Part shown: piece after piece, positions 1 to 36,433 of the stretch
Numbering within the stretch: position 1 is the first letter of the stretch
Layout of the letters: each line of letters begins with the position of its first letter
Origin: Cyanobacteria bacterium P01_E01_bin.6
GTDB lineage: Bacteria > Cyanobacteriota > Cyanobacteriia > CAKZMO01
Assembly: GCA_039194035.1 (NCBI GenBank)
Contig: JBCCWF010000002.1
Coordinates: forward strand, 1-51,858
Direction of reading: 5' to 3'
Length of the DNA stretch: 51,858 nt
Translations under genes and position numbers: made by a program
The notes under the pieces: generated by a model
Database searches by the model: none
Seen by the model: only the letters and a program-made list of their open reading frames with translations
Told to the model about the DNA's origin: nothing

Positions 1-75
1 CCCAGATACCCCAGTCGTGTCCATATTTTGCAAGAGTTATAAGCAATACTAGATAACGTTAATAATCAGGATTTT

Positions 76-1494
76 GTGCTAGTCTATTTTGCGTGTCACC
101 GCGTTAGAAACCCGGAGGGAAAGCCAATGCTGATCGCTGCTGACACTCGAAAGAAACGGTTGGAAGAATCGGGCATTTCTATTCTTGATGATTTAGAGCC
201 ATTAATTCGGAACAGTCGAGCCCAACAGAAGGTGCTAATGTTGGATGCGTGTTTTATGGGACAGGGCCGAGGCCAGCAAGATCCCACAGAGTTCCTGAAG
301 AAGGTCAATGAACTTGCTAGTGGGTTTGAGGTTATTAGTGCTAGCAGCGAAGACCAAGAAGCCTTGGAGTCGTCAGGTCTAAACCATAGTATTTTTTGCC
401 ACTTTGTTCTCAAAGGATTGGCAGGTGAAGCTGAGATGGGCCAGAAGGTTGTGATGCTAAGTGCTCTTAAGCGTTATGTAATGGCAGAAATTGCCGAATA
501 TACTGTACGTCTGAGTATCGAACAATCTCCGCAAGGACGTTCTGACGGGAATCTTGGGGATTTCATGCTAGTAGATTACACCGCTCATTCTCTACCTAGT
601 CTTGAAAGTCTAAGCATTCCTGATATACAGCAGGTTTCTCCTCAAGATTTTCAAGCACGCAGTGAGACAAACGAACCCAAGTCGATTGGTACTAGGTTAA
701 TTGAATCGTTATGGACTCTAGACTATACCAATCAGGTTCAACTTTTTGAGTCACGTATTCCTAGAATGCGAAGGGGTGCAGTCGTTGCAGTACGAGCAGA
801 GAATGAATTGTTGCAATCATGGTTAACAAAGCGTTTATTGAAGAAACTCCCCATTCCAGTAAACAATTTTGTTGATGCCTGTGCTGTCATATCAGCGAGT
901 GATGTTTTGGATAATTTTGAGACATTCTGGGACGGGTTAGGTAAACACTTCAAGGTCAATACATCACTTAGATCGGTTGATAGAGATGCTTCTCAAATGA
1001 TCATCGAGACAATTATTAAAAAATATCAATCGGAAAACATCATTATTGTGATCAAAAATTGGCCTCGACGGTCCGGTCTACGCAAGAGAGTGCCAGAGTT
1101 ACTCTGTAGAATTCTGAATGATTTTTGGTATCCGTTGCAGACTGAAATGCGAGCTCAAAAAGTCGCGCCACTTCGCCAGCGGTTGGTTTTGTGTTTGATG
1201 GATGCTGGAAGAAAAACAAACAACTTACAGTCTCTGAAAAATGAAAACCCTAATTTAGTAGACCTTATTGATCTATCTCCTCTTAATATTACGAGTGATG
1301 AACTTACACAATGGGTCATAAGCAATCAATGGTTGCCAGACATCCGAAAAGACGACGATTATGTTGATGAGTTTTTAAAAGACCTCAGCGAGCCTGGGAT
1401 GCTAGAGAATGCTGAGGAGGTGATTAATGACATTTGTGATTTGTTCAAAGTAAATCTGGTGGATATTGAGGCAGAGTGGAGGTGGGCAGGATGA
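76..1494 (+). CDS. Caspase-like (peptidase C14/metacaspase-type) protein with ~300 aa C-terminal region of unknown function; N-terminal part of protease fold cut off by an in-frame TAA at 40-42
   Basis: The His strand LVYFACHR and Cys strand VLMLDACFMGQG match the caspase His-Cys dyad context (YFxGHG ... LDxCxSG). The stop overlaps the next start (ATGA at 1491-1494). Confidence 0.6.
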   Translation: MLVYFACHRVRNPEGKPMLIAADTRKKRLEESGISILDDLEPLIRNSRAQQKVLMLDACFMGQGRGQQDPTEFLKKVNELASGFEVISASSEDQEALESSGLNHSIFCHFVLKGLAGEAEMGQKVVMLSALKRYVMAEIAEYTVRLSIEQSPQGRSDGNLGDFMLVDYTAHSLPSLESLSIPDIQQVSPQDFQARSETNEPKSIGTRLIESLWTLDYTNQVQLFESRIPRMRRGAVVAVRAENELLQSWLTKRLLKKLPIPVNNFVDACAVISASDVLDNFETFWDGLGKHFKVNTSLRSVDRDASQMIIETIIKKYQSENIIIVIKNWPRRSGLRKRVPELLCRILNDFWYPLQTEMRAQKVAPLRQRLVLCLMDAGRKTNNLQSLKNENPNLVDLIDLSPLNITSDELTQWVISNQWLPDIRKDDDYVDEFLKDLSEPGMLENAEEVINDICDLFKVNLVDIEAEWRWAG

Positions 1495-2585
1495 CACAAG
1501 AAATTGATTACACCTACACCGGGGACTATCGGCCTCCCTTTGAAGATGGTAAAGAACCGCTGCGTGACCATAAAGGACGGGAGTATTTTCCATATCTGCC
1601 AGAGCCTGGGCTTAAAAAAGCGCTGAACTTGGCCATTGCCCTACAGCGTCCACTCCTCTTGGAAGGAGAGCCAGGATGTGGGAAAACCCGCCTTGCCGCT
1701 TCACTCGTGTATGAACTCACCTGCAAGCAGTTGGAAGGAAACCCTCCTGATTCCAAAACAAACGCAGAAGACTGGTGGAATTTTTATATTTGGAACGTTA
1801 CATCTACCAGTCGTGCTCAAGATGGGCTGTATACCTTTGATGCCGTTGGACGACTACGGGACGCACAGCTCATGGGGACCGATCCCGTTCGCCTGCAGCA
1901 ATATATGGGTAAGCTTGAAGCCGCAGCCTTGAAAAAACGGATGCAGGACAAGACCAAGTATCTAGATTTTGGTCCCTTGGGGCTTGCCCTAAAGGATCAA
2001 ACCCATCGTCCGGTGGTGCTTATTGATGAAATTGATAAAGCAGACAGTGACTTCCCGAATGATCTGCTGCTGCAATTAGACGAATTGCGATTTGATATTC
2101 CTGAACTAGGGGAAGGTGAAACGGTTCAGCCTCCAGAAGCCCGCAATAAACCGATTATTTTAATTACGAGTAATCGAGAAAAACCCCTATCTGAGGCGTT
2201 TTTGCGACGATGTCTTTACTACTATGTGCCGTTTCCAGGTGACGAGACGTTGCGGGAGATTATTAAGGCCCGATTTGGCGAAAAGTATATAGACAAAAAA
2301 GCAGTTGTCGATCGGGCTCTAGATAAATTCAATGACGTGTATCAGTTACTGAAGAATCAACCCGGTAGTCGTCCGCCTGGGACGAGTGAGGTTCTGGAGT
2401 TTGTGACAGCATTACTACAACACCAGCAGACAGACGACGACACGTTAACTGAGCTGGATAACTTATCCGGTGAATTACATTTACTAGGAACGCTGATTAA
2501 AACAAGCGCGGATCAAGAACGCTATATCGCGACATATCCACCTAAAGAGAAGGCCGACAATGAGGTGAGTGCATCAGATGGCTGA
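1491..2585 (+). CDS. MoxR-like AAA+ ATPase
   Basis: Walker A is LLLEGEPGCGKTRLA and Walker B is VVLIDEIDKAD, followed by ILITSNREKPLSEAFLRRC (sensor/Arg region). ATG 1491 is preceded by GGAGG at 1479-1483. The ORF-track start at 1476 is a GTG further upstream. Confidence 0.8.
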   Translation: MTQEIDYTYTGDYRPPFEDGKEPLRDHKGREYFPYLPEPGLKKALNLAIALQRPLLLEGEPGCGKTRLAASLVYELTCKQLEGNPPDSKTNAEDWWNFYIWNVTSTSRAQDGLYTFDAVGRLRDAQLMGTDPVRLQQYMGKLEAAALKKRMQDKTKYLDFGPLGLALKDQTHRPVVLIDEIDKADSDFPNDLLLQLDELRFDIPELGEGETVQPPEARNKPIILITSNREKPLSEAFLRRCLYYYVPFPGDETLREIIKARFGEKYIDKKAVVDRALDKFNDVYQLLKNQPGSRPPGTSEVLEFVTALLQHQQTDDDTLTELDNLSGELHLLGTLIKTSADQERYIATYPPKEKADNEVSASDG

Positions 2586-3696
2586 GCTATCATTTCCTTT
2601 TTTGGACTTATTTCAACAGCTTCAGGGGGCGGGGATGAAGCTATCACCGGAGCAGTATGATTTGTTGCGGCAGGCTATCGGCAAAGGGTTTGGGCAGGAA
2701 GACTGGAAGTGGGATGAGTTGCGGCAGGTCTGTCGAGTGTTGTGGGTAAAGCCTAGTCGGAACTATGACGGACAAACCTTTGAGCAAGTGTTTGATCAGT
2801 ATGTGCGGCAAAAGCAGGAGGAGATTCGAGCACAACTGACCGTCACTCAGCCGGAAGCGAAAACGGCACCTCCTAAACCAGCTCAGCCAATGCGACAGTG
2901 GCCTAGGGTGCCACCGCGCAAAAAGTCGGTGAGTCAGCCAGAGGCAACGACGGCAGAGGAAAAGGTACCCACCGCATTCAAAACGGGGGTGGAGGGCTTG
3001 CCTCAGATGGATGATCCTCGATTTAAGGTGACGCCCAGACAGATGCCGCTGCCCCAGCGCACTATTTTGGATAGCTGGCAGCTTTTGCGTCGTCCGCTGC
3101 GGGAAGGCATTCGCACTGAATTGGATTTGCCAGCAACGATCCGCTGCATTTCCCAGGTAGGCTATTTTAGCGACGTGGTGATGCGTCCGGTGAAGAATAA
3201 ACGGGCGGAGCTGATTGTGTTAGTGGATGATGGCAATGTGATGTTGCCGTATCAGCCTGCGTTGCAGCCGCTGGTTCGTGCCATTGAAACTCAGCAAATT
3301 ACTCCTGCTAAGTTGTATCGGTTTACTACTTACCCGGATGAGTATCTCTATGATTGGGTTCAGCCCTCCCATGCGATTCCGCTGGACCAGGTGCTGGCGC
3401 AGATGCATGCACGGCGGACGATTGTGCTGGTGTGGGGCGATGCAGGAGTCACTCAAACCAATCCGGCGGATGCCCATCGTAAGGGCTTGCTCGATTTTTT
3501 GAATCGGTTGTGTCCCTGCGTGCGGTCTTTGATTTGGTTAAACCCATTGCCTCCCTATCGCTGGACTGGAACGTTGGCGGAGGAGGTGGCCTATTGGTTG
3601 GATGGGCGTATGACCCATTTGAATGTGTTCCAGGTGTTGACATTGGCGAAAAAGCCAGCAGGAAATGATCGCATATTTTTGAGATCGCCTGGGTAG
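2578..3696 (+). CDS. vWA-like partner protein of the MoxR ATPase (tentative)
   Basis: The gene overlaps the MoxR gene by 8 nt (ATG 2578, MoxR stop 2583-2585). Strand-like motifs ELIVLVDDGNVM and RTIVLVWGDAG are consistent with a vWA/CoxE-type fold. A canonical DxSxS MIDAS motif is not evident. The MoxR-vWA pairing is a well-known gene neighbourhood. Confidence 0.45.
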   Translation: MAELSFPFLDLFQQLQGAGMKLSPEQYDLLRQAIGKGFGQEDWKWDELRQVCRVLWVKPSRNYDGQTFEQVFDQYVRQKQEEIRAQLTVTQPEAKTAPPKPAQPMRQWPRVPPRKKSVSQPEATTAEEKVPTAFKTGVEGLPQMDDPRFKVTPRQMPLPQRTILDSWQLLRRPLREGIRTELDLPATIRCISQVGYFSDVVMRPVKNKRAELIVLVDDGNVMLPYQPALQPLVRAIETQQITPAKLYRFTTYPDEYLYDWVQPSHAIPLDQVLAQMHARRTIVLVWGDAGVTQTNPADAHRKGLLDFLNRLCPCVRSLIWLNPLPPYRWTGTLAEEVAYWLDGRMTHLNVFQVLTLAKKPAGNDRIFLRSPG

Positions 3697-3707
3697 GGAG
3701 GTAGCAG

Positions 3708-5282
3708 ATGGGACCCTCGGCACGAGAGAGACGACAAGAAAGACGGCTGCGGCGAGACCCAACCGAACGGCGGATACGAGTGTTTGAGCAGCGCTATGGC
3801 CGGATGGCAACGAATTTGGCAGCCCATGCGGCGTTTCCGCTGACGCTGACGACGGATGTGATCTATTGTTTGCGGGAATCGTTTTTACCGGATTGTCCCT
3901 GGTATGCAGCGGCGGATGTGTTGCTGTCAGGATTGTGTACTCCGGTGGGCTATGACTTGTATGAGATGGAAGCGGCAACTCGTCGCTACCTGTTGCGGTA
4001 CTTGCGGGATCAGTTTGGAGATGGGCAAGTTGAGGCGGTGGCTGACTTTATGGCGGCCTATTTACGCCATCGAGTGTTGGGGCTAAAGGATAATCGAGCC
4101 TTGATGTTGGGGGAAAAGCCCCAGTGGACGGCGTTGGCTTGTTTGCAGCCGGGGAAAGCCCGTGACGAAATCTATCAGGCGCTACAACACTTAGCCCGTC
4201 AGCAGACGTTAGACCAACAAGACCGATTTCGATTGGCTTCATTGGTGGAAAGCTATGGTGATTTTCTCGCGGACCAGGGATATCAGCATTTCATGGTGGA
4301 ATGGGCCGATAAGTTCGCCGAGGAAGAGCCGATTGATGCTCAGGCCGAGATGGTGGAGCAGCTTCAAAATGCTGGTTTCTCGGTGCGGTGGGTGGAGTTT
4401 GAGGTGGCGACGGTAGCCTTTGGGGTGGAGCAAGCCCCGATGGAAGAGAGTGAGCTATACACCGTTAATATTGAGACGGTCACGGTGAATGAGCAGGGAG
4501 AGGAAATTGCCAGAGAACCGCATACTGTCTCCTATTTTGAGGAACTGTTGGGAGACCCTATCACCCCACTGCGGCTGGTAGCAATTCCCAGTGGGGAATT
4601 TATGATGGGGTCTGGAGAAGAGGACTCTGACAAATACGGGGATGAAACACCTCAGCATTTGGTAAAAGTCAAGCCGTTTTTTATTAGCCAGTATCCTGTG
4701 ACTCAGGCCCAGTGGAAAGCTGTGGCAGCCATGCCGACGCCCACAGAAGATTTGGAGGAAGACCTCAAACCCGAGCCATCCAGATTTTCGGGTGATGAGC
4801 GCCCGGTAGAGCAGGTGTCGTGGCATGAGGCGGTGGAGTTTTGTGCTCGGTTGTCGAAGCATACAGGACGCATCTATCGGTTGCCAACGGAGGCAGAGTG
4901 GGAATATGCCTGTCGAGCAGATACGACCACGCCCTATTATTTTGGGCCGAAGATAACAGAAGCTTGGGTTAACTACAACGTTGGTGAAACTACTTCTGTA
5001 GGAAAATTTCCTCCTAATGCCTTTGGCCTGTATGACATGCACGGAAATGTGTGTGAATGGTGTGCCGATCACTGGCATGGCAATTATGAGGAGGACGGAG
5101 GACCACCAACAGACGGAAGTGCTTGGCTGACAGAGGATTCAGACGCTAGGCGAGTGAACCGCGGCGGCTCCTGGTACCCCTATCCAAGGCTTTGCCGTTC
5201 CGCGTGTCGCGACGATGACCTCCCCGGCGACCACTACGACGATATTGGTTTTCGAGTTGTATGCGAGGCCCGAGGACTCTGA
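3708..5282 (+). CDS. DGR target protein 1: N-terminal domain of unknown function plus C-terminal FGE-sulfatase (SUMF1-like, C-type-lectin fold) domain carrying VR1
   Basis: FGE-sulfatase motifs are present: LVAIPSGEFMMGS, YPVTQAQW, VSWHEAVEFCARLS, YRLPTEAEWEYACRA, GLYDMHGNVCEWCADHW, RGGSW, IGFRVV. GGGAGG lies upstream of ATG 3708. The last 41 codons equal VR1. Confidence 0.85.
   Translation: MGPSARERRQERRLRRDPTERRIRVFEQRYGRMATNLAAHAAFPLTLTTDVIYCLRESFLPDCPWYAAADVLLSGLCTPVGYDLYEMEAATRRYLLRYLRDQFGDGQVEAVADFMAAYLRHRVLGLKDNRALMLGEKPQWTALACLQPGKARDEIYQALQHLARQQTLDQQDRFRLASLVESYGDFLADQGYQHFMVEWADKFAEEEPIDAQAEMVEQLQNAGFSVRWVEFEVATVAFGVEQAPMEESELYTVNIETVTVNEQGEEIAREPHTVSYFEELLGDPITPLRLVAIPSGEFMMGSGEEDSDKYGDETPQHLVKVKPFFISQYPVTQAQWKAVAAMPTPTEDLEEDLKPEPSRFSGDERPVEQVSWHEAVEFCARLSKHTGRIYRLPTEAEWEYACRADTTTPYYFGPKITEAWVNYNVGETTSVGKFPPNAFGLYDMHGNVCEWCADHWHGNYEEDGGPPTDGSAWLTEDSDARRVNRGGSWYPYPRLCRSACRDDDLPGDHYDDIGFRVVCEARGL
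5157..5280 (+). repeat. DGR variable repeat VR1 (124 nt)
   Basis: Hand alignment to TR 6894-7017 gives 15 differences, all at TR adenines, plus one non-A difference at the 3' end (G 5275 vs C 7012). Confidence 0.9.
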
Positions 5283-5319
5283 GTATCTCTCTTTTCTTTT
5301 TCCCTCTTTCCCTCTTCTT

Positions 5320-5334
5320 TCGCGCTTCGCGCGA
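5320..5334 (+). promoter_or_regulatory. GC hairpin downstream of VR1 (TCGCGC-TTC-GCGCGA), candidate DGR retrohoming hairpin/cruciform
   Basis: It has a 6-bp perfect stem and a 3-nt loop. An equivalent hairpin sits at the same offset after VR2 (9133-9147). Confidence 0.55.
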
Positions 5335-5427
5335 TCAAAATTTTTTCAGAGTTTCCTTATCACACTCCACTTGATTATTGATGCTGAATCTTTGGTAGAG
5401 TTGGAACCCACAAAATTTCAGAGTGCT

Positions 5428-5772
5428 ATGAACGAAGAACTACCGATTATCCAGAAAACCTATGACCTGATTAAATGGGCCGTTCCGATTATTGATCGAC
5501 TGCCCCGCAGCCATCGCTTTACCTTGGGCGATCGCATTGTGAATGAACTCTACAACTTGCTCGATCAACTGATCACAGTCCGATATGCCCGATCTGGGAA
5601 ACTGACAGCCCTACAGGCATTGAATACTCGGCTCCAGGTGTTGCGCTACCAGTGTCGGCTATTGCTGGATCTTGAGCTGATTTCGGTAAAACGCTACGAG
5701 TTTATGCATCGACAAATCAATGGAATTGGCATGGAGCTGGGAGGCTGGATTAAGCAGCAAACCCCCTCATGA
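5428..5772 (+). CDS. avd: DGR accessory variability determinant (Avd; four-helix-bundle / 23S rRNA IVS-like protein)
   Basis: The 114-aa product [37 protein letters not shown]... resembles the four-helix-bundle family. Its stop overlaps the RT start (ATGA at 5769-5772). The ORF-track start at 5215 reads through VR1 and is rejected. Confidence 0.8.
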
Positions 5773-6854
5773 AACGCTACGGATATCTCTGGTCTCAGGT
5801 CACTGATTTTCAAAATTTGTGGCAAGCGGCCAGGCAAGCTCAGCGCAGTAAACGCTATCGGCCCGGCGTCTTAGCCTTTAACCATGAGCTAGAGCAAAAC
5901 TTGCTGCAATTGCAAGAGGAGTTGCACGCTAAAACCTATCAGCCGGGCGACTATCACACCTTTGAAATCACCGACCCTAAACCTCGGCTGATTTCGGCAG
6001 CTCCTTACCGAGACCGAGTGGTGCATCATGCCTTGTGCAATGTGATTATGCCCCTGATAGAGCGATCCTTTATTGACGACTCCTATGCCAATCAAGTCGG
6101 GAAGGGAACCCATCGGGCACTGAAACGGGCAATCCACTTCATTCGTTCGAGTGATTATGTCTTGCAATGTGATCTCCAAAAATATTTTCCAAGTATTGAT
6201 CACACGATTCTCAAACGACAGCTCCGACACTGGCTGAAGTGTCCGGATACCTTATGGCTGATCGACACCATTATCAACAACAGCAATGACCAGCCCCGAG
6301 AACTGACTTATTTTCCTGGCGACACCTTGCTGACTCCTCTAGAACGCCGCGCTGGATTACCCATTGGTAATTTGACCAGTCAGTTTTTTGCCAATGTCTA
6401 TCTGAATGGGCTCGATCATTTTGTTAAAGAAACGCTGCACATTGGCAGATACCTGAGGTATGTAGATGATTTTTTGCTATTCAGCAACGACCCCTACCAG
6501 CTCAGCGATGCTCGGCAGGCCATTGAAGACCATGTGACGGGGTTACGATTGCGACTGCATCCCGCCAAAACTCAACTGTTTGAAACCCAACATGGCGTTA
6601 ATTTCGTGGGATTCCGGATGATTCCAGAGGATCGGATGTGCCCCCGCGAGGTTGTCGTGAGGGTACGAAACGACAATTTACAGCGTGCCCGGAGACGATG
6701 TAAACAGTTACAACGTGAGTATGCAAACGGCACCATTGGGTTGAAGCCTCTGGTACAGCGACTACAGAGTTGGGAAGCTCACCTCAAGCATGGCGATACC
6801 CATCGGTTACGGCGGCGGATTTTTGATGAGTTGGTGTTTCGGCACGATGAGTGA
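5769..6854 (+). CDS. DGR reverse transcriptase
   Basis: RT motifs are present: [24 protein letters not shown], the DGR-typical [17 protein letters not shown], and YVDD in [10 protein letters not shown]. It is flanked by avd and TR. Confidence 0.9.
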
Positions 6855-6893
6855 GCCAGATTGCGTGTACCCTAAGGGGTGGGTCAGGCAGCC

Positions 6894-7017
6894 AAACGCG
6901 GCGGCTCCTGGAACAACAATCCAAGGAATTGCCGTTCCGCGTGTCGCAACAATAACAACCCCGGCGACCACAACAACAATATTGGTTTTCGAGTTGTATG
7001 CGAGGCCCGAGCACTCT
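6894..7017 (+). repeat. DGR template repeat (TR), non-coding template RNA region
   Basis: The 124-nt segment starts 40 nt after the RT stop. It contains 11 AAY codons in the VR reading frame (KRGGSWNNNPRNCRSACRNNNNPGDHNNNIGFRVVCEARAL). It is homologous to VR1 and VR2, with differences only at A positions. Confidence 0.9.
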
Positions 7018-7364
7018 TCAGTGAGTGGTGCTGTCAATACGACCGGATCACAGTGCCAGAGTTGATAGGTGGGAATCTATCAAGCGTGCCCCGTGAAGAG
7101 TCCAGACCTGGTCCAGTGATGCACCCGCATCCAAAAAGCAACCAGAGCCAGAGGGCTTAGTAGGTTTTTCTCGAACCGTCGTCTGGCTCATCCTAAAAGC
7201 AGGTATATGACGTATTAATTTAGCAATATTTATTATAGAAACGCTGATCTACTTGAAAAATGAAGCGGCAGAACCGTAGCCTGATAGGTTCACTCGAACA
7301 CTAACGGGTAACACACAACTTTCTTCTTCTGGTTCTACTTTCGGTTCTATTTGGGAAACGGCTA

Positions 7365-9092
7365 ATGACATCCTCATCTCCCAGTTTTAATCAATCTTCC
7401 TTTAATGCTTCAAAGCAGGATTCTCAGATAACCCTTAATGCCGTTATTGTCACTTCCCTAGCCGTTGAATCTCAAGCCGTTCGTTCATTTTTAACCAATG
7501 TTCACGAGGTCACTCATCCTACTGGAACCGTTTATGAGCGGGGTATCTTTGAGGCAGACTCATACACATGGGATGTTTACATTGTCGAAATCGAGCTAGG
7601 TAATATTATTGACGCAGCGGAAATAGAGCGTTCTCTTTCAGTGTCCAAGCCCCACGTCATCCTATTCGTAGGTCTTGCTATTGGTATCAGAAACGTCAAG
7701 ATTGGAGATGTAGTAGTCGCACCAAAGATCTATCGCTATATATTAGATACACGATCAGAAGAACCTGAATTGCGTCCTCCGCTTGGTGCAGAATCTCATG
7801 TGTTGTCAGAATATGCCAAAGCGGAAGCACAAAAAAATGAATGGTTGTCTCGATTACCAAAACCGACTGCTCCTCCCCCAGATGTCATTATTGCGCCGCT
7901 CGTTTCTAGCGAAAAAGTTGTGGCTTCGATGCAGGATCAGAACTATGAGTTTTTACGATCTCATTTTAATGACGCAGTAGCTGTAGATCTAGAAGGATAT
8001 AAATTTCTGGAGAAGATTCCTTCTATCTTTCCCTTTGTCATGGTCATTCGGGGGATTTCTGATCTCATTGATGACGTTGAGCTTAGCCAATACTACCCTG
8101 AGGGGTTAAGTAAAGAAATAGCAGCTCGACATGCTAGTGCTTTTGCAATTCACATACTCTCTAAGTTTGCTAATAGTAAGGATGAACCAGATTTTCAGGC
8201 TGAGTTTGGTGAGCAACAAGATACAGTTGAGACGTTTGGAGTTATTCAACAGTCTCAGCGATCGCAATGCTTTACCGACCCTGAGATTCACGCCAAACTT
8301 GGAATTCAGATTGATCTGATGTTGATTCCCAGAGGCACCTTTGTAATGGGGTCTCCAGAGAATGAACTCGGTCGATATGATGATGAAGATTCACTCCATG
8401 AGGTGACCGTCTCACCCTTTTTGATGGGGCGCTATCCGGTAACGCAAGCCCAATGGAGGGCGGTGGCCAACCGAGAAGACCTGAAAGTTGAGCAAGACCT
8501 TGATCCTGACCCCAGCAAAGTTAAGGGGGAAGATCATCCAGTTGAACGGGTGTCCTGGTATGAAGCGATGGAGTTTTGTCAACGGCTTTCAAGGTTAACG
8601 GGCCACCACTACCGCTTACCTACTGAAGCCGAATGGGAATATGCCTGCCGAGCCGGGACAACAACTCCGTTTCATTTTGGAGAGACCATCACCACTAATT
8701 TGGCGAACTATCGGGGAACTGATAATGAAAGTGAGCCTGAAAACTATCCTGGCAACTATGGAGATGGCCCCAAAGGTGACTATCGGGAAACAACGACTCC
8801 AGTCAATCAGTTTCATCCTCTGGCGAATGCATTTGGCCTATGCGATATGCATGGCAATGTATGGGAGTGGTGTGCCGATCACTGGCATCGCAATTATGAG
8901 GATGATGGGGGTGCGCCAATCGATGGGAATGCTTGGTTGACAGAGGATTCAGATGCTAGTCGAGTGCTACGCGGCGGCTCCTGGTACGACAATCCAAGGG
9001 ATTGCCGTTCCGCGTGTCGCAACGGTCTCAACCCCGGCGACCGCAGCTTCGATATTGGTTTTCGAGTTGTATGCGAGGCCCGAGGACTCTGA
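7365..9092 (+). CDS. DGR target protein 2: N-terminal nucleoside phosphorylase-like (PNP_UDP-type) domain fused to C-terminal FGE-sulfatase/C-type-lectin-fold domain carrying VR2
   Basis: The N-terminus has LNAVIVTSLAVESQAV, HVILFVGLAIGI, GDVVVAPKIYRY, AVAVDLEGYKF and VIRGISDLIDD, matching the phosphorylase-superfamily pattern (GIAGG, GDVVV, EMEG, RGISD) with substitutions. The C-terminus has LIPRGTFVMGS, YPVTQAQW, YRLPTEAEWEYACRAG, HGNVWEWCADHW, RGGSW and IGFRVV. Confidence 0.8.
   Translation: MTSSSPSFNQSSFNASKQDSQITLNAVIVTSLAVESQAVRSFLTNVHEVTHPTGTVYERGIFEADSYTWDVYIVEIELGNIIDAAEIERSLSVSKPHVILFVGLAIGIRNVKIGDVVVAPKIYRYILDTRSEEPELRPPLGAESHVLSEYAKAEAQKNEWLSRLPKPTAPPPDVIIAPLVSSEKVVASMQDQNYEFLRSHFNDAVAVDLEGYKFLEKIPSIFPFVMVIRGISDLIDDVELSQYYPEGLSKEIAARHASAFAIHILSKFANSKDEPDFQAEFGEQQDTVETFGVIQQSQRSQCFTDPEIHAKLGIQIDLMLIPRGTFVMGSPENELGRYDDEDSLHEVTVSPFLMGRYPVTQAQWRAVANREDLKVEQDLDPDPSKVKGEDHPVERVSWYEAMEFCQRLSRLTGHHYRLPTEAEWEYACRAGTTTPFHFGETITTNLANYRGTDNESEPENYPGNYGDGPKGDYRETTTPVNQFHPLANAFGLCDMHGNVWEWCADHWHRNYEDDGGAPIDGNAWLTEDSDASRVLRGGSWYDNPRDCRSACRNGLNPGDRSFDIGFRVVCEARGL
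8967..9090 (+). repeat. DGR variable repeat VR2 (124 nt)
   Basis: Hand alignment to TR gives 14 differences, all at TR adenines, plus the same single 3' non-A difference (G 9085 vs C 7012). It differs from VR1 at many of the same codons. Confidence 0.9.
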
Positions 9093-9132
9093 GTATCCCT
9101 CTTCTCTCTTTTTTCCCTCTTTCTCTCTTCAT

Positions 9133-9147
9133 TCGCGCTTTGCGCGA
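9133..9147 (+). promoter_or_regulatory. GC hairpin downstream of VR2 (TCGCGC-TTT-GCGCGA)
   Basis: It has a 6-bp perfect stem and a 3-nt loop, and is paralogous to 5320-5334. Confidence 0.55.
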
Positions 9148-9310
9148 TCAATTTTTTTTTTATAATCCTCTCCAAATCACTAGAGTTGTTTTTGAGGAAG
9201 CGATCGCACTTAAAATCTACCTTGCTCAGAGTTTGGTCAGAGGTTGTGGCCGAAACCATAACTATTTGTCTCTGCAGGGTTGAGGCGATCGCCCCTTAAC
9301 TCCAGAAAGC

Positions 9311-9344
9311 AAAAAAGGCTAAGGAGATGCTCCTTAGCCTTTTG
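9311..9344. terminator. Bidirectional intrinsic terminator
   Basis: A 12-bp perfect stem AAGGCTAAGGAG/CTCCTTAGCCTT with a 3-nt loop is flanked by an A-run on the left and a T-run on the right. It lies between convergent genes (7365-9092 + and 9414-9674 -). Confidence 0.65.
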
Positions 9345-9413
9345 ATGTGTGAATGAATTCAATCATTCTGCAACCTCTTCAATCACTGAAGTGGTGATTG
9401 AAACCCATACGAT

Positions 9414-9674
9414 CTAGTTTTTGGGAGTGCATCGCTGAGCCACATCGGCCACCAGCGCTTTCACCCTCTTCATGCCTTCTGGATTGACAGTCGGCTTCGC
9501 AGCATTTTGCTGTCGAATCACAATCGTTCCATCCATCGGCATCAGGTCTAACTTCAGCGTCAGCCCTCTACGGTCTTGATGTTTCCATGCAACGCCAATC
9601 TCCCGCCAAATCTCCTTCTGATTCGGGAGCTGCTTAACCGAGTAAGCAATAAACGTTGGCCGATTCTTATTCAT
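9414..9674 (-). CDS. Hypothetical small protein
   Basis: The 86-aa ORF overlaps the upstream minus-strand gene by 8 nt (operon-like). I recognise no family. Confidence 0.4.
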   Translation of the reverse strand: MNKNRPTFIAYSVKQLPNQKEIWREIGVAWKHQDRRGLTLKLDLMPMDGTIVIRQQNAAKPTVNPEGMKRVKALVADVAQRCTPKN

Positions 9675-10038
9675 GACTCCCTCCTCTCGAATATCGAGCT
9701 AGCACATAGGCATTCTCAAACCAGATCACCTGAAACATCTCTCCTTCAATCCGCTGTAAGGATGAGTAGACGGATACCTGATGTGCATCAAGCCATATTT
9801 TCATCTGAGCACCATCACCATCCATCACGACTTGAGCGACCATACCAAGCCACAGTTCCGATTCTTTAACCAAGAACCAACGTCGCCCATCATCATAGGG
9901 TTCAAGCGATTGCCGAGGTACGACATCTATTTGGCTGTGCCAATAGGTCTCCAACTGCTTGGGTAGAGCCTTTGAAGGGGCAAGCTGACTCTCCAGCAGT
10001 TGCGTTTGAGTCTCAACTTTCTTATCGTTATTGTTCAT
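9667..10038 (-). CDS. Hypothetical protein
   Basis: The 123-aa ORF has an ATG start and is coupled to 9414-9674. I recognise no family. Confidence 0.4.
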   Translation of the reverse strand: MNNNDKKVETQTQLLESQLAPSKALPKQLETYWHSQIDVVPRQSLEPYDDGRRWFLVKESELWLGMVAQVVMDGDGAQMKIWLDAHQVSVYSSLQRIEGEMFQVIWFENAYVLARYSRGGSHE

Positions 10039-10053
10039 CCGTTATTTCCTATT

Positions 10054-10085
10054 AAAAAAGAGCGACCGGGTCGGGTCGCTCTTTG
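10054..10085 (-). terminator. Intrinsic terminator after 10122-10457
   Basis: The stem AGAGCGACC/GGTCGCTCT (9 bp) has a 6-nt loop and is followed on the minus strand by TTTTTT. Confidence 0.6.
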
Positions 10086-10121
10086 GGTTGCGATTCGCAG
10101 TGCGAATCAGTAAGGTTTACT

Positions 10122-10457
10122 TCATTGCTTTTGAGAAGAGGCGGCACCGTTGATGTGGGTCTTGGGTGTTGCCTGCTTCGATTTTTTATGCCTATTAGGC
10201 ATTTGCCTTTTCTCAAGCTGTGCCGACAGTGCTTTCATCGTTCCAGTCAACTCCTTGAGTTCGTCTGAGTGATTCAACGCTCTGAGCTGAGCTGAGAGAG
10301 GCTTCAGAGCTGAGATGATTGTCTGCATCTCTTCTCGACAGCTAATCTTTGCAGCGACGCTTGAAAGCCAATTCATCCCATAGGACGCCGCCAGGGTAAT
10401 CAACGCCCCTACGATTCCACCTGAGGCGAACAGCCAATTTTCATAGGTAATTTCCAT
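10122..10457 (-). CDS. Hypothetical membrane-anchored protein
   Basis: The 111-aa ORF has an N-terminal hydrophobic segment (WLFASGGIVGALITLAASYG). AAAGGA lies upstream of the ATG. Confidence 0.45.
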   Translation of the reverse strand: MEITYENWLFASGGIVGALITLAASYGMNWLSSVAAKISCREEMQTIISALKPLSAQLRALNHSDELKELTGTMKALSAQLEKRQMPNRHKKSKQATPKTHINGAASSQKQ

Positions 10458-10498
10458 ATCGTTTCCTTTATGTTTTTCATTATTGCCAATGCGATAGG

Positions 10499-10903
10499 TT
10501 AAGCGACAATCTGCCGATGAGAACGAGCGATGCGTGCATACTCCACTAGAGTGTGCATCGGTTCAAACGACCGTTCTTTTTCAACGGATAAGCCGAGCGG
10601 GCCTCTCAACATGACCAAATCCCGGATGGAGACACTTCCTAATTCTGGAAATCCCACCCCCAAATCACAGAGCCCAAAGGCTATCTCCGGTTCCTCTGGA
10701 TCCAACTCAGACAACAGCCAGGTCATCTGAGCATTGGGAATGAACAATTTGATGAGTGGCTTCTGGGCCATCTCAATGGCTTCTCTCGTTGCAATGGAAC
10801 GAGCATTGAGGCGCTTTTCTGCCTGTTGAATCAGGGATTGAAAGTCCTTAACGCTCATCAGTTTGCGGTGTAGCGATTGATATAGGGTTTGATGGTTATT
10901 CAT
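10499..10903 (-). CDS. DUF2958-like plasmid/ICE protein
   Basis: MTWLLSELDPEEPEIAFGLCDLGVGFPELGSVSIRDL matches my recollection of the DUF2958 signature. The start is taken at the internal ATG (MNNHQ...) rather than the ORF-track start at 11035. Confidence 0.6.
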   Translation of the reverse strand: MNNHQTLYQSLHRKLMSVKDFQSLIQQAEKRLNARSIATREAIEMAQKPLIKLFIPNAQMTWLLSELDPEEPEIAFGLCDLGVGFPELGSVSIRDLVMLRGPLGLSVEKERSFEPMHTLVEYARIARSHRQIVA

Positions 10904-10971
10904 CAGTATTTCCTTATTAAAAAAGGAGGACAAAGCAATGCTTCGCCCTCCAATCGGTTTATTCAATTGTG

Positions 10972-11172
10972 CTATCTGAACTGCATCCTGAAAAACCAGA
11001 GTGCGTTCAAAAGAAGCCAAACTCCTTTCGCGCACCCATCCCAGGACATCGTCCAGAAAACAGACATCAATTCAGACCAATGCATCCCAATCGTCATCAC
11101 CAACCCAAGGGTGGTAATGGTGAGATAAAAGATGTATCGTCCTAATCGAATCAGTGGTACAGCATGTTCCAT
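10972..11172 (-). CDS. Small hydrophobic protein (hypothetical)
   Basis: The 66-aa ORF has a strong RBS AAGGAGG 6 nt upstream of the ATG and one clear hydrophobic segment. Confidence 0.4.
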   Translation of the reverse strand: MEHAVPLIRLGRYIFYLTITTLGLVMTIGMHWSELMSVFWTMSWDGCAKGVWLLLNALWFFRMQFR

Positions 11173-11179
11173 ATTATCC

Positions 11180-11680
11180 TCCTTTATTTAGGTCATTGAG
11201 TTGCTGCTCAATGGCCTTATCTTTTCAGTGAGTTCATCCAATTCCGGTTGAAATCCGATGAATCATTCCACCTGAAATACACACATCCACGACCAGAATT
11301 ACTTCCAGCAGGGACTCTGATGACAGGCTGTCCTGACATCCGTATTCAAAGATGGTTTCAGAAAAGATTGAGAAGGATATAGGCAGGAGAATTAGATATT
11401 AGAATTGTTCAGATGAAATCAATTTTCACTGTATTCATCCGGTATATATTCCGGTCTCTAATTCCATGTTTATTTCGAACAATATTCAGTTTTAATTTCG
11501 AACAGTATTCAGTTTTTAGGTGAGAGAATATACCGCTTTCGTATCCCTATAATGCTTCCCAGATCGGGCATATTTCTCTCTAGTTAACAAACGAATCAAA
11601 CCAAAAAGAAGCACTACAGAAACATCATTAGTATAGCGAAAATCTCTAAGATGAGATCGCTGAATTTAGGTTTTTAATGA
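11180..11680 (+). promoter_or_regulatory. Candidate oriT / relaxase promoter region
   Basis: This AT-rich non-coding 0.5 kb lies immediately upstream of the MobF relaxase gene. It contains tandem 23-bp repeats and TATAAT at 11548-11553. Confidence 0.35.
11472..11517 (+). repeat. Tandem direct repeat, 2 x 23 bp (ATTTCGAACAATATTCAGTTTTA / ATTTCGAACAGTATTCAGTTTTT)
   Basis: Read directly; the two units have two mismatches. Confidence 0.85.
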
Positions 11681-14203
11681 ATGTTATCCATTTCAAAAAT
11701 GGGGAAGGGAAGTGCCCTTTATTATGCGAAGCTAGCCCAAAATCAAGGAGAATTTGATGCATCACAACCGGGTGAGCCACCAGGCGAATGGTTGGGGCGG
11801 GGGGCTGCAACCCTTGGATTGACAGGCACTGTAAATCAAGCAGATTTTCTCGCACTGTTTGATGGCTTTTCAACGGATGGGCAAGCATTTCTAGCCAATG
11901 CAGGTCGAGACAATCATGTGCCGGGATGGGACTTGACGTTTTCATCAGTGAAGTCTGTGGGTGGTCTGTTGTGGGCAGTAGCTCCTGCTCATATCAAGGC
12001 AACACTTGAGTCCTGTCATCATCGGGCAGTGAAGAGGGCGATCGCCTATCTCGAAGAACAGGCGGTTAATCGAAATGGAGAGCAATGCAATTTAGTGATT
12101 GCAGCGTTTCAACATGGAAGTAACCGCAATCTCGATCCAGGGCTGCATACCCACTGTCTAGTGCTGAATCTCGCCGTAGGGCAGATGGCTGGAGAGAAAC
12201 CTCGCCCTCTTTACTCAAAACATCTCTACAAACACAAGCGAGCCGCTGGAGCACTCTACCGCAGTGAGTTTTCGTATTTGCTTCAACAGGAGTTGGGACT
12301 CTCGTTAGAGCGAGTGCGCAGTTGGTTTGAGCTGAAGGGATTTTCGAGAGAACGCGGACGCTATCAGGAACTCATGAATCACTGGTCATCTCGACGACAG
12401 GAGATCGAGACGCAAGAACCTGTGAATGCCCGTCATGCTCAGTTGTTGGCCTATCAAACTCGGCAAGAAAAAGGTGTTGTCCCACCGCGCCATGAACTCT
12501 TTGCCCAGTGGCAAGATACTGCTGCGGAGTATGGATTGACCCAGCGACAGGCCATCCGCTTAGTAAAGCCTCCAAAGCAGCCCTTAACGCTCACACAAAA
12601 GTGGGCAGAATGGCGAACTATTCGAGAAGCTGCTACTGCCGTGATACGGCATCAAAGTCACTTTACCCATCGTGAATTAGTGCAGGCTGTTGCAGAAGCT
12701 TCACAAGCTCGGACGATTTCAGCAGACCGGGTAATGGAACTGACGGAATGGTATCTCACCTCTCGGTACGTGATGCGTCTCGGCATCATTGACGGACAGA
12801 AGCGCTATGCCAATAAACGACTCTATCGCTTAGAGCAGAAACTATTGAATCAAGCCCAAACCCTTAAGCAGTCGAGAGGATATCGAGTCCGGACAAAGAC
12901 AGTCACTCAGGCCGTGATGCGTCACGGCATTAGACCGGAACAGGAGCAGGCCATCGTCACGGTGACGCAACCGTCTCGACTCTCGGTCTTATCCGGTCTT
13001 ACCGGAACGGGGAAGACCCATACCGTGAAGGTGCTCCGGGACATTTACCAGGCCAACGGGCATGAGGTGTTGGGCGTAGCAGCATCCCGACGCGGGATGG
13101 AAAAGCTGCACGAGAAAACGGAACTCAGTCATCAACGCTGGTGGGAACCCTTCGTGGAACACCCCTCAGAACAAACAATGAGTGTGCATCGTTTGTTTAC
13201 TGCCTTGGATCGAGCGCAGGAAAGCCAGTGGCAATATGGCGCTCGATCAGTCGTGCGATCGCCCCTTTCGAATCGAACCGTCGTGATCGTCGATGATGCA
13301 CAGCGCATCAATACCGCCCAGATGAATCGTCTTATCACGGAAGTCAATCAGGCTGCTGCCAAACTAATTCTTTGCGGGGATTTGAAGCAGCAACAAAGTT
13401 ATGAACACCGGGGCGCATTTGCGGCTATTGCACAGCGATTTGGCCATATCCAACTTGAGCACGTGGTACGCCAGGAAGAAGAACAGGCACAAACCATAGT
13501 GCAGCAGATTTCAGAAGGAGAGTCCCAAGCAGTGGTTCGTCGATTAGTAGAACAGGGACAACTTATCTTTGTTGAACACAAAGAAGAGGCCATGCTCCAG
13601 ACCGTTCAACAATGGAAACCGCAGGGTATTCGGCACCCACGACAGCATCTGATGATTACCGAGACCCGAGAAGATGCAAAAACGTTGAATCGGTTAGCGC
13701 AACAAGCTCGGGTTGAATCCGGTGCGTTGAGTCAGGTTGCCGTTAAAGTGAGGGGAGACCATTTTTACAAGGGCGATCGCCTTTTGCTGGCCGAATCGTC
13801 TCATACCTACGGCGTAACAAAAGGAACGTTCGGAACACTGAAGCATCTGGATTCAGTCACTCGCATGGCTGTGGTGAAGCTAGACTCAGGGCAGACTCGG
13901 TTCATCAACACCCGACTGTATCGAGGGTTGGAGTTGGGATATGCAGTGACGACAACAACCGCACGGGACATTGAAGTGAATTATGCTTATGTCATGGCCC
14001 ATGGCGATGGTCGGGAGGCGGCGTTAGTTCAACTCTCGCGAGCACAGAAGCAGACTCAGGTGATTGCCTATGGTCATGGGGTTGAGCATGACCAGACGCA
14101 GAACTTAGCCGATCAACTGAAATACTCAAAGCTTCAGGAATTTGCTGTGATTGCACATGAGCGTGGGAAAGAACAGGCGCAGGAGCAGGGGCGATCGCAC
14201 TAA
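11681..14203 (+). CDS. MobF-family conjugative relaxase (TrwC/TraI-like relaxase domain plus C-terminal P-loop helicase-like domain)
   Basis: The N-terminus MLSISKMGKGSALYYAKL, WDLTFSSVKSV and the histidine motif HGSNRNLDPGLHTHCLVLN are typical of the TrwC relaxase domain. The central P-loop is LSGLTGTGKTH with VVIVDDAQ. Confidence 0.85.
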   Translation: MLSISKMGKGSALYYAKLAQNQGEFDASQPGEPPGEWLGRGAATLGLTGTVNQADFLALFDGFSTDGQAFLANAGRDNHVPGWDLTFSSVKSVGGLLWAVAPAHIKATLESCHHRAVKRAIAYLEEQAVNRNGEQCNLVIAAFQHGSNRNLDPGLHTHCLVLNLAVGQMAGEKPRPLYSKHLYKHKRAAGALYRSEFSYLLQQELGLSLERVRSWFELKGFSRERGRYQELMNHWSSRRQEIETQEPVNARHAQLLAYQTRQEKGVVPPRHELFAQWQDTAAEYGLTQRQAIRLVKPPKQPLTLTQKWAEWRTIREAATAVIRHQSHFTHRELVQAVAEASQARTISADRVMELTEWYLTSRYVMRLGIIDGQKRYANKRLYRLEQKLLNQAQTLKQSRGYRVRTKTVTQAVMRHGIRPEQEQAIVTVTQPSRLSVLSGLTGTGKTHTVKVLRDIYQANGHEVLGVAASRRGMEKLHEKTELSHQRWWEPFVEHPSEQTMSVHRLFTALDRAQESQWQYGARSVVRSPLSNRTVVIVDDAQRINTAQMNRLITEVNQAAAKLILCGDLKQQQSYEHRGAFAAIAQRFGHIQLEHVVRQEEEQAQTIVQQISEGESQAVVRRLVEQGQLIFVEHKEEAMLQTVQQWKPQGIRHPRQHLMITETREDAKTLNRLAQQARVESGALSQVAVKVRGDHFYKGDRLLLAESSHTYGVTKGTFGTLKHLDSVTRMAVVKLDSGQTRFINTRLYRGLELGYAVTTTTARDIEVNYAYVMAHGDGREAALVQLSRAQKQTQVIAYGHGVEHDQTQNLADQLKYSKLQEFAVIAHERGKEQAQEQGRSH

Positions 14204-19756: not shown

Positions 19757-20533
19757 ATGAAGAAATCTCTTGAAGTCCGAAAGCTGAATAAAGCTGAACG
19801 ACAGCGACTGCGAATCATCGTGGTACTGAGCGACAAAGGAGGGGTCGGCAAGTCGGTTTTTGCCCGGTTGCTGTTGCAATATTTTCTAGACTGTAATCGT
19901 CCAGTCATCGGATGCGACTGTGATCGCTCGAATCAAAGCCTCCTAGACTACTATCAACGTATGGTTGAGGTTATCTTAGCCTTCTTCAGTGAAGACCCCA
20001 AAAAGGCATGGAAAGCTGACTTCATTCTGGAAGCTGTTTTAGAGCACCTCAAAGATATCATTGTTGACACCCCAGCCCAGGTGTTCAGGAGCGTGACCGC
20101 ATACCTGCATCAGGGTGGCTTAAAGGCAGCCCAGCAACAAGGCGTTGAATACCTTTTATTTATTGTCATCGCGGATCGCTATTCACTCGAACAGTTTATT
20201 GACCTCGTTCACGAATTTGGTGATGACATTCCATTCCTTATTGCATTGAATAAGGGCTGTTGTGATGACTTCGCTTTTGTCGAAGAGAGTGATGAGTTTC
20301 AGTCCATCATCAAATCTTTGAAGATTCCAGTCATCACCATTCCTGAGCTGCCTTATCGAGAACGAGAAATCATCGACCAATATCGGTTGTCATTTTCTGA
20401 AGCTCTACAATCCACTGATTTAACCATTGTGGGCAGGCAACGGGTTGCAGATTTCTTATCCGAATGCTTTGAACAACTGGATGACCTAAATCAGCTTAAG
20501 GAGGGTGATAATGGCCTATCGACAAACGCCTGA
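19757..20533 (+). CDS. ParA/MinD-superfamily P-loop ATPase (partition or TraL-like)
   Basis: It has the deviant Walker A VVLSDKGGVGKSVFA, and GGAGGA lies upstream of the ATG. Confidence 0.7.
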   Translation: MKKSLEVRKLNKAERQRLRIIVVLSDKGGVGKSVFARLLLQYFLDCNRPVIGCDCDRSNQSLLDYYQRMVEVILAFFSEDPKKAWKADFILEAVLEHLKDIIVDTPAQVFRSVTAYLHQGGLKAAQQQGVEYLLFIVIADRYSLEQFIDLVHEFGDDIPFLIALNKGCCDDFAFVEESDEFQSIIKSLKIPVITIPELPYREREIIDQYRLSFSEALQSTDLTIVGRQRVADFLSECFEQLDDLNQLKEGDNGLSTNA

Positions 20534-21508: not shown

Positions 21509-21525
21509 ATCTTAGGAAATTCATC

Positions 21526-30120: not shown

Positions 30121-30582
30121 ATACTTACAGATACCCTTAACGAATGGTCATCTCATTCTAGCCACGACTTACTATAGGTTCCACAACTTCGAGTAGTTGC
30201 AATAGGCAAAGGGTTAGAAGACCCTAGCGCATTTGGAAGTATGAAATTGGGTCCAACCGTTTCTCTAGTCTGCGCCTTTCGCTTAACGGTTGGATATCTT
30301 GGATCCCCAAAAAACTTCTGAAAAATTTAGTGATTGAAGTCGCTTGAGGGCTATATGAGAAACTCAACTTGCTTTTCTAAAAAGTGAGGATTAGAACCAT
30401 CCCTATTACTGGACTGCTTTGATTGGTTGTGGTGACTGGCGTTTTTTTCAAATGAACAGATAGAGGAAACATTGTTAGACTTAATAAATCAGTAGGATTC
30501 TGCCCATAAGGCTCGCTGCAAGAGCTAGAATAACTTTGTCTTCTTGGCTCAGCTAGCCGCTTACACCCAGTTATTGAAGCTT

Positions 30583-36317: not shown

Positions 36318-36433
36318 TCTTTTTTGCCATGGAGATGTTAGATGCCATCCTAAGCTAAACCTGCGTTACTGGTATCCAAACAGTCCCTAATTTTACTGAT
36401 TCCTCTTATACCCATTGATTGCCAGCTACTAAT

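Follow-up and report, generated by a model that had tools for sequence, protein, structure and literature searches.

An apparently complete and functional-looking cyanobacterial diversity-generating retroelement flanked by two lectin-fold target genes

Does the window analysed here, a 51,858-nucleotide (nt) contig (JBCCWF010000002.1) of Cyanobacteria bacterium P01_E01_bin.6, carry a complete diversity-generating retroelement (DGR), and does that element still look capable of rewriting its target genes? A first-pass annotation had proposed a complete DGR with one template repeat (TR) and two variable repeats (VRs), the latter located in the genes on either side. Our computational follow-up confirmed the coordinates on which this proposal rests, and every testable defining sequence feature of such an element was found. 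Judged by its sequence, the segment 5428–7189 is very probably the core of a complete cyanobacterial DGR of the avd–RT–TR type (RT, reverse transcriptase), functional in appearance and provided with one target gene on each side.

The three repeats were compared by exact ungapped alignment and by an independent repeat search. TR occupies 6894–7017 on the forward strand, starting 39 nt past the RT stop codon, and VR1 (5157–5280, forward) and VR2 (8967–9090, forward) each end one base into the stop codon of the gene that carries them. The repeat search returned the same three copies as a single family, D13 (TR 6894/6896–7017, VR1 5157/5159–5280, VR2 8967/8969–9090), and a degenerate search allowing any base at TR adenines, for which TR was used both entire and as two separate halves, found no further VR copy in the window. 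VR1 differs from TR at 16 positions, namely 15 TR adenines and C7012>G; VR2 differs at 15, namely 14 TR adenines and the same C7012>G. The first-pass counts of 15 and 14 adenine-site changes thus hold, but its assertion that every mismatch falls at a TR adenine does not, since the shared C7012>G had been overlooked. In the exact three-way alignment, run with mismatches tabulated by TR base, 15/16 and 14/15 differences lie at TR adenines and are not spread over the other positions. At the 5' edge, two A-site mismatches of VR2 (6894–6895) and one of VR1 (6896) stand where homology may already have stopped, and TR/VR homology is unambiguous from 6897 on. Within the 122-nt core, which contains 33 adenines, the adenine bias has a hypergeometric P of 2.3e-9 for VR1 (15/16) and 2.9e-7 for VR2 (12/13).

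TR is built from 11 AAY codons in the reading frame of the VRs, exactly as first described and with the codon examples given then also exact, and the A-site changes fall nearly all at positions 1 and 2 of these in-frame codons. Each AAY codon can become a codon for any of 15 amino acids and never a stop codon; computed from the 11 codons, this amounts to ~8.6e12 variants per target on the binding face of the lectin fold. The changes do not extend to the 3' end of the repeat. The most 3' A-site change of VR1 is at TR position 6978, and 13 TR adenines are unaltered in both VRs. These include all six adenines of the last 39 nt, where neither VR has an A-site change despite four of the six lying at synonymous third positions. 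This segment (6979–7017 in TR, 5242–5280 in VR1 and 9052–9090 in VR2) therefore looks like an initiation of mutagenic homing (IMH) segment that bounds mutagenesis, IMH*-like in TR and IMH-like in the VRs, with 5157–5241 and 8967–9051 as the mutagenised parts.

Comparison of the two VRs with each other bears on when and how they were rewritten. They differ at 19 of 35 A sites (agreeing at 16) and at none of the 89 non-A sites, and at the non-A positions each equals TR at 88 of 89. The 141 nt directly upstream of the VRs, in target genes that are paralogous, are identical at 116 of 141 positions (82%). Because VR1 and VR2 agree at 89 of 89 non-A sites next to paralogous sequence with no more than 82% identity, retrohoming appears to have been evolutionarily recent. 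The sequence pattern indicates that both VRs were overwritten from TR after the two genes had diverged, each independently of the other, which upholds the earlier proposal of independent rewriting. Both VRs stand at the 3' ends of FGE-sulfatase-domain open reading frames (ORFs) that are open to the terminal stop codon. TR itself sits in a spurious 93-aa ORF (6879–7160, forward) resembling an FGE-sulfatase C-terminus. A comparable annotation pitfall is seen in a related locus from a Spirulina metagenome-assembled genome (MAG), L081, where the TR is annotated as a 50-aa gene with a weak FGE-sulfatase match (1916–2068).

The protein machinery expected beside such repeats is present and intact. 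The accessory variability determinant gene avd (5428–5772, forward; Pfam bAvd 8e-21, NCBIfam DivGenRetAVD 6.7e-39) overlaps the RT gene (5769–6854, forward; Pfam RVT_1 1e-22) by 4 nt, and both were found where the first-pass annotation had placed an avd gene and a DGR-type RT with a YVDD motif. Avd clears the DivGenRetAVD equivalog cutoff with 132 bits against 80. Among solved structures, the RT matches Bordetella bRT (8ub7) best, over its full length (residues 2–347) and with an E-value of 1.7e-46, as opposed to 6e-14 at best for group II intron RTs. The motif-A aspartate (LQCD135), IGNLTSQ and YVDD (231–234) are intact and lie in invariant columns across 14 homologues; the PKPRLIS fingertip motif, IGxLTSQ and the catalytic aspartate residues are conserved.

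Many cyanobacterial RTs are 60–80% identical to this one, the closest homologue being 80% identical, and related RTs at 60–64% identity are carried on plasmids of Acaryochloris, Anabaena, Nostoc, Microcystis and Fischerella. A phage origin was considered and rejected, phage RTs being <40% identical. RTs of this largely cyanobacterial clade (~60% identity) are also found in MAGs labelled Thiomargarita, Chloroflexaceae, Acidobacteria, Blastocatellia, Moduliflexus and Heliomicrobium (loci L011, L041, L047, L051, L053 and L025), a distribution that would fit either horizontal spread between bacteria of filamentous or multicellular habit or errors in binning. Homologues of this clade are widely labelled 'retron-type', a further pitfall of annotation.

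To place the window among its relatives, 80 related loci gathered via the RT alignment were scanned with a simple detector of TR/VR pairs having A-biased mismatches. In ~50 of the 80, a TR lies 15–300 nt past the RT and a VR ~0.5–0.7 kb upstream of it, often with a second or third VR. Because so many share it, the layout of the window is the norm for this clade. In one locus, from a Methyloligellaceae MAG (L072, 1748–3545, reverse strand), a group II intron lies between VR and RT (Rfam D1–D4 and domain V/VI above gathering scores).

The RNA that would carry TR is equally well defined. A 210-nt alignment around the TR end from 37 loci (A2), analysed with RNAalifold, yielded three hairpins in which 30 of 32 pairs show compensatory changes. 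In the window, hairpin P1 (7062–7083, forward, as for all elements below) has a 9-bp stem (7062–7070 : 7075–7083) capped by a GGGA tetraloop of the GNRA type. Its stem is 98.8% paired, with compensatory changes at all 9 pairs, and it is the putative analogue of an Avd-binding stem-loop. Hairpin P2 (7116–7137) pairs 7116–7123 with 7126–7132, with compensatory changes at 6/7 pairs, and is followed by an A-run (7133–7137). The long hairpin P3 (7145–7189; 7145–7157 : 7177–7189), with a conserved UAGUAGG/CGAA internal loop and compensatory changes at 15/16 pairs, forms the 3' limit of the conserved DGR RNA.

Two longer-range pairings involve TR itself or the sequence before it. The TR 3' end (ACUCUUC, 7013–7019) is the template strand of a predicted template:primer duplex with 7095–7101 (plus 7011:7103); this primer strand belongs to a near-invariant spacer block, GAAGAGUCCAGA (7095–7106), in which C7102 stands opposite C7012 of TR. 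Of the TR:spacer helix, 96.8% is paired, and four of its pairs show compensatory changes (for example CTCTCC/GGAGAG in L019 and CTTTTC/GAAAAG in L035). When the pairing of the TR 3' end with the near-invariant GAAGAGUCC block is counted in, 95.6% of the cells of the structure are paired and double changes occur at 34 of 39 pairs. The covariation score is 0.567 versus 0.268 in shuffles, none of 500 of which reaches the observed value, and slid registers score ≤ 0.139. The second pairing joins sequence 9–19 nt 5' of TR to a spacer segment beginning 12 nt past GAAGAG, and its arms in the window are TGGGTCAGG (6880–6888) and CCUGGUCCA (7107–7115). This duplex, which resembles the 'cPRT Stop' of the phage DGR BPP-1, reaches at least 9 bp in 29/36 loci versus 8.7% of shuffles, and is formed by 31 distinct arm pairs with many compensatory changes. 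The minimum free energy fold of the window RNA alone recovered the TR:spacer helix, P1 and P3.

The cryo-electron microscopy structure of the BPP-1 bRT–Avd–RNA complex contains a template:primer duplex, a GNRA-capped Avd-binding stem-loop just past TR, and the 'cPRT Stop' duplex, beside which lie a stem-loop and adenosines, and its authors report these elements to be conserved in Cyanobacteriota DGRs (bioRxiv 10.1101/2023.10.23.563531). The elements predicted in the window RNA correspond to them one-to-one. Between the TR end and P1, an insertion of ~35 nt (7020–7055) has a small hairpin of its own; L004, L030 and L083 carry an insertion at the same place, and most relatives, including L081, are without one.

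A permissive Rfam search of positions 1–12000 gave a sole match, to RT-14 (RF02921), at 7043–7189 on the correct strand and over the full length of the model (1–144). RT-14 also matches right after TR in L018 (44.8 bits), L008 (38.9) and L010 (35.0), all below the gathering score. Homology of the window RNA to RT-14 is likely because the matches are full-length and always directly 3' of TR. The two agree in the order of their hairpins and in the UAGUAG...CGAA loop, whereas the model is without the pairings to the TR 3' end and to sequence 5' of TR. We found no literature that ties RT-14 to DGRs.

What, then, is the one base that departs from the adenine rule? C7012 lies 6 nt short of the repeat's 3' end; both VRs have G there (G5275 and G9085), and this is the only systematic non-A difference between TR and VRs. 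A pyrimidine (C or T) in TR against G in the VR, in the context AG[Y]ACTCT near the repeat 3' end, recurs in 54 of 75 ungapped TR/VR pairs (37/54 loci). The nearest relatives, L081 and L083 (80% RT identity each), share both the 122-nt TR and the C>G marker with the window. Because it recurs in 54 of the 75 related pairs, C7012>G is best taken not as noise but as a marker that tells donor from recipient across the clade, in the manner of IMH*/IMH. It amounts to a one-base version of the asymmetry between IMH and IMH* known from DGRs in general (PMC5758913).

The position of the marker hints at its role. It lies in the TR:spacer primer duplex, where the TR base is mispaired opposite a spacer C in 31 of 34 TR RNAs, here C7012 opposite C7102. 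In BPP-1, a Watson–Crick pair forced at Sp57:TR117, between the nucleotide that follows the primer and the template base that is copied first, all but abolished the synthesis of cDNA (PMC6182149). By analogy, the arrangement suggests that the TR pyrimidine at 7012 holds the start site open, or marks the start of the cDNA. A pyrimidine in TR but not in the VR would make sense because it would keep the start site unpaired, whereas the G of the VR would pair with the spacer.

A second set of clade-wide elements follows the VRs in the DNA. After each VR, the stop codon is followed by a pyrimidine-rich tract, a 6-bp GC hairpin with a 3-nt loop, and TCAA(A) with a T-run. Behind VR1, the tract (5283–5319, forward; 95% C/T, in ~7-nt units) leads to the hairpin TCGCGC-TTC-GCGCGA (5320–5334, forward) and then TCAAAATTTTTT; a DNA fold of 5281–5350 has z = -2.8. 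Behind VR2, the tract (9093–9132, forward; 92% C/T) leads to TCGCGC-TTT-GCGCGA (9133–9147, forward; DNA fold z = -4.4) and then TCAATTTTTTTTTT. The two copies of this module are 86% identical (repeat family D19), and no equivalent GC hairpin was found after TR. Among the relatives, such a hairpin follows 63 of 90 VRs at a median of 51 nt past the repeat, and the tract has a median pyrimidine content of 84%, versus 38% after TRs and 49% overall. The tract units are of the form RCYCTTT, ~7 nt long (5-mers CCCTT, z = 14.5, and GCCCT, z = 23; modal spacing 7). In the library searched, we found no literature linking DGRs to a pyrimidine tract, which is no proof of novelty. The idea that the CT-tract units covary with the spacer primer strand, as RNA–DNA pairing would imply, was dropped: L019 (GGAGAG) and L035 (GAAAAG) were judged by eye to be without matching tract units.

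In BPP-1, a GC inverted repeat after VR is needed for efficient homing; it is 7–10 bp long, has a GRNA loop and lies 4–34 bp from VR (PMC3240598). The hairpin of the window differs from those of phage DGRs in its 6-bp stem, its triloop and its distance of 39–42 nt from the VR, behind the CT-rich tract. Taken together, the marker and the post-VR module could form a clade-specific donor/recipient code: a single TR pyrimidine (C7012 opposite C7102) would ensure that only TR is reverse-transcribed, and the array of ~7-nt RCYCTTT units, the triloop GC hairpin and the A/T run after each VR would serve as a landing pad for the cDNA–RNA–protein complex. We advance this proposal tentatively, as one that may well prove wrong.

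Based on these elements, a mechanism as in BPP-1, operating with clade-specific cis-elements, is the best explanation for the locus. By analogy with BPP-1, avd, RT, TR and spacer would be co-transcribed. The RNA would fold so that 6880–6888 pairs with 7107–7115 and the TR 3' end (7013–7019) with 7095–7101, and the GNRA stem-loop at 7062–7083 and the two further hairpins would dock it onto the Avd–RT complex. The spacer itself would supply the primer for the RT, at or beside U7101; copying would begin at or next to C7012, unpaired opposite C7102. The enzyme would proceed 5'-ward through TR, misincorporate opposite adenines, and halt at the 6880–6888:7107–7115 duplex. Finally, the cDNA would replace the homologous sequence of VR1 or VR2 upstream of the invariant IMH-like 39 nt.

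The resemblance to BPP-1 is extensive. Both systems have an RT with Avd, A-specific transfer from TR to VR, a 3' asymmetry of the IMH/IMH* type, a GC inverted repeat past the VR, and an RNA with a TR:spacer duplex, an Avd-binding stem-loop and a stop duplex accompanied by a stem-loop and adenosines. They differ in gene order, which is avd–RT–TR here (architecture B2; PMC5758913) and avd–TR–brt in BPP-1, and in setting, cellular here (possibly on a plasmid or an integrative and conjugative element, ICE) and phage there. The targets are two FGE-type lectin-fold proteins instead of Mtd. The 3' ends of TR and VR differ by one base, whereas IMH and IMH* of BPP-1 are 'somewhat' different (PMC5758913), and the predicted priming nucleotide is U in place of A.

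Which proteins does the element diversify? Target gene 1 (3708–5282, forward; 524 aa) begins 11 nt past a vWA-domain gene and encodes an N-terminal region of unknown function (aa 1–289) followed by an FGE-sulfatase/C-type-lectin (CLec) domain with VR1 (aa 290–518; Pfam FGE-sulfatase 3.3e-52). In PDB searches, this lectin domain matches PvdO (9e-39) and TvpA, a DGR variable protein of Treponema (2y3c, 9.2e-23). Target gene 2 (7365–9092, forward; 575 aa) combines an N-terminal MTA/SAH-nucleosidase-like domain of the PNP superfamily (Pfam PNP_UDP_1 0.0033; NCBIfam PRK05584 4.2e-11; PADLOC PN-superfamily effector 7.4e-6; PDB 4wkb 3.6e-6) with an FGE-sulfatase/CLec domain containing VR2 (Pfam FGE-sulfatase 6.2e-56). 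The assignment of both targets to the FGE-sulfatase/C-type-lectin fold, made from the letters at first reading, is borne out by the Pfam scores and by the TvpA match. The two proteins are paralogues with 59% identity over the lectin domain. They share with Treponema denticola TvpA the FGE-sulfatase-type C-type-lectin fold and C-terminal variable residues; TvpA, however, is a lipoprotein diversified by a DGR of the HRDC type (architecture C), whereas here the partner domains of the targets are of intracellular type and avd serves as the accessory gene.

The nearest relatives have a short, lectin-only protein as their second target. Target 2 has its PNP-superfamily domain in common with a large family, mainly of cyanobacterial proteins, in which this domain is fused to EAD adaptor domains, TIR, NB-ARC, SEFIR, GUN4 or FGE-sulfatase, a pattern typical of shuffled effector modules. 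The fusion with FGE-sulfatase occurs in at least two other proteins (P0135 and P0138), so that it is uncommon but not unique.

Upstream of target 1, three consecutive, overlapping genes form with it an operon-like run. The run opens with a gene for a caspase-like peptidase, its N-terminal part missing, with an iSTAND domain (76–1494, forward; Pfam iSTAND 4.2e-9, NCBIfam caspase_w_EACC1 5.3e-19). It continues with a MoxR-like AAA+ ATPase gene overlapping both of its neighbours (1476–2585, forward; Pfam AAA_5 5.5e-12) and the vWA-domain gene (2569–3696, forward; Pfam VWA_CoxE 1.2e-7), and it closes with target 1. The caspase_w_EACC1 match spans model positions 73–209 only, the first ~72 being absent, and an in-frame stop lies directly upstream, at 40–42, at the contig edge; the gene (window 1–1494) is a pseudogene, or else both interrupted and cut off by the contig edge. 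The vWA protein and the target 1 N-terminus (3708–4050) match consecutive parts of one NCBIfam model, SAV_2336_NTERM (positions 29–183 and 352–470, respectively), and the two genes are in different frames with 11 nt between them. They may represent a split of the single vWA–lectin target found in other DGR loci.

This neighbourhood places the locus in a described setting. Cyanobacterial DGRs of clade 5E adjoin MoxR, vWA and effector genes and have been proposed to diversify sensors of ternary conflict systems (PMC10907252). The locus resembles this DGR lineage of cyanobacteria and multicellular bacteria (Dore et al. 2024, PMC10907252; Vallota-Eastman et al. 2020, PMC7517822) in RT identity (60–80%), in CLec/FGE targets, in the MoxR ATPase, vWA protein and peptidase-type effector genes beside the target, and in often having two targets, some of the lineage being plasmid-borne. 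The synteny of L083, MoxR?–vWA–target–avd–RT–TR–target, supports the match to this conflict-gene setting. The differences are the N-terminal nucleosidase domain of target 2, where the nearest relatives have short CLec-only proteins, a vWA domain on a separate protein and not in the target, and the 35-nt insertion between TR and the first RNA hairpin. The run peptidase/iSTAND, MoxR-like ATPase, vWA and lectin-domain protein, closely spaced or overlapping, likewise recalls the vWA–MoxR ternary conflict systems of the VMAP/iSTAND type (PMC10907252), from which it differs in having no detected VMAP domain and, at the contig edge, only an incomplete caspase-like domain. Thus, the locus layout (avd–RT–TR, MoxR/vWA neighbourhood, two targets) matches published cyanobacterial DGRs and is little new in kind.

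The likeliest role of the diversified targets is that of ligand sensors in conflict or defence systems, as the literature proposes for this DGR clade, because target 1 ends the caspase/iSTAND–MoxR–vWA run and target 2 fuses a nucleosidase-type effector to a variable lectin.

The remainder of the contig was also surveyed. Mobility genes lie at 11681–14203, 19757–20533, 21316–23400, 42998–44461 (reverse) and 47541–48533 (reverse), and include a TrwC-type relaxase, a ParA-like ATPase, a type IV coupling protein, a DDE transposase and a tyrosine integrase; the 51.9-kb contig has the appearance of a fragment of a conjugative plasmid or ICE. A terminal overlap that would indicate circularity was looked for and not found. 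Four paralogous TPR–CHAT (caspase-like) proteins with arrays of 126-nt TPR repeats are encoded on the forward strand at 30544–33894, 36419–39604, 40243–42258 and 44555–47452. An NB-ARC/EAD4 STAND protein stands beside a TPR protein (15347–18602, reverse), and PglZ, RadC and pentapeptide-repeat genes are also on the contig. Together, these genes make up a dense conflict-system gene island around the DGR. The contig has 47% GC and 30 sites of HIP1 (GCGATCGC), a cyanobacterial hallmark.

Several observations weigh against a complete, functional-looking DGR, and they must be set against the evidence above. RT, Avd and target 1 are singletons in a 15-billion-protein collection, with no same-strain variants found, and the exact sequence of target 2 was looked for in the protein collection and is absent. 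At the contig edge, the caspase/iSTAND gene upstream is cut short or interrupted, and the associated conflict system may be incomplete. The RT-14 match, at 31.5 bits, is below the gathering score of 48.1, and no Rfam family matches at its gathering threshold, so that the window RNA stands formally outside RT-14. The priming and start nucleotides are predicted ones. The post-VR hairpins are short (6 bp), have TTC/TTT loops instead of the GRNA tetraloop important in BPP-1, and lie 39–42 nt from the VR. T-runs follow these hairpins, which could therefore be plain terminators, and 9133–9147 scores as terminator-like; however, a conserved TCGA/TCAA(A)n spacer separates stem from T-run, and the element is conserved with the VR and not with a type of gene. 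Some of these points would suit the main rival explanation, a fossil that looks intact but no longer retrohomes, the VR differences being relics that now evolve as ordinary sequence: singleton proteins provide no population variants showing ongoing variation, a neighbouring gene is damaged, and the hairpin loops are not of the GRNA type that BPP-1 needs. Yet a fossil would hardly be expected to show no non-A difference over 89 positions, bar the fixed marker, next to paralogous sequence with 18% divergence. RT, Avd and all RNA helices are intact, and the same triloop types occur in post-VR hairpins throughout the relatives. We therefore regard a fossil as improbable.

The two remaining alternatives fare far worse. 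The repeats could in principle be three paralogous copies of an FGE-sulfatase C-terminus, one of the three a gene fragment, that diverged by ordinary mutation or gene conversion, without any reverse transcription; the targets are indeed paralogous, and TR lies within a spurious FGE-sulfatase-like ORF and was even called as a gene in L081. This explanation is effectively refuted by the mismatches, 29 of 31 of which lie at adenines of one copy only, and by the adjacency of Avd, a DGR-type RT and a DGR RNA, a pattern repeated in dozens of related loci. Nor does the RT appear to belong to another class, such as a retron, a group II intron or a defence-associated RT (DRT), with repeats nearby by coincidence. 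Homologues are named 'retron-type reverse transcriptase' by JGI, and there are sub-cutoff NCBIfam matches to group II RTs and DRTs as well as PADLOC DRT-family matches; but the NCBIfam group II match reaches 137 bits against a cutoff of 300, the structural match to bRT is far stronger than that to group II RTs, no intron or retron RNA family was found in 1–12000, and the RT is flanked by an overlapping avd and by TR. Another class of RT is effectively excluded. A complete, functional-looking DGR is thus the reading that we retain.

The value of this locus lies in its being a clean, fully resolved example, in which every protein, RNA and DNA element could be given coordinates and both targets have been independently rewritten. 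Comparison with the 80 related loci leads to three predictions: that priming occurs near U7101 and copying starts from near C7012, that a single TR pyrimidine is the donor mark, and that a CT-heptamer tract and hairpin follow every VR. If the single-base donor mark and the post-VR landing pad are real, they would offer a testable handle on the 3' step of cDNA integration. Target 2, in which a nucleosidase effector is fused directly to a hypervariable lectin, is a compact sensor–effector candidate for asking what the diversified proteins detect.

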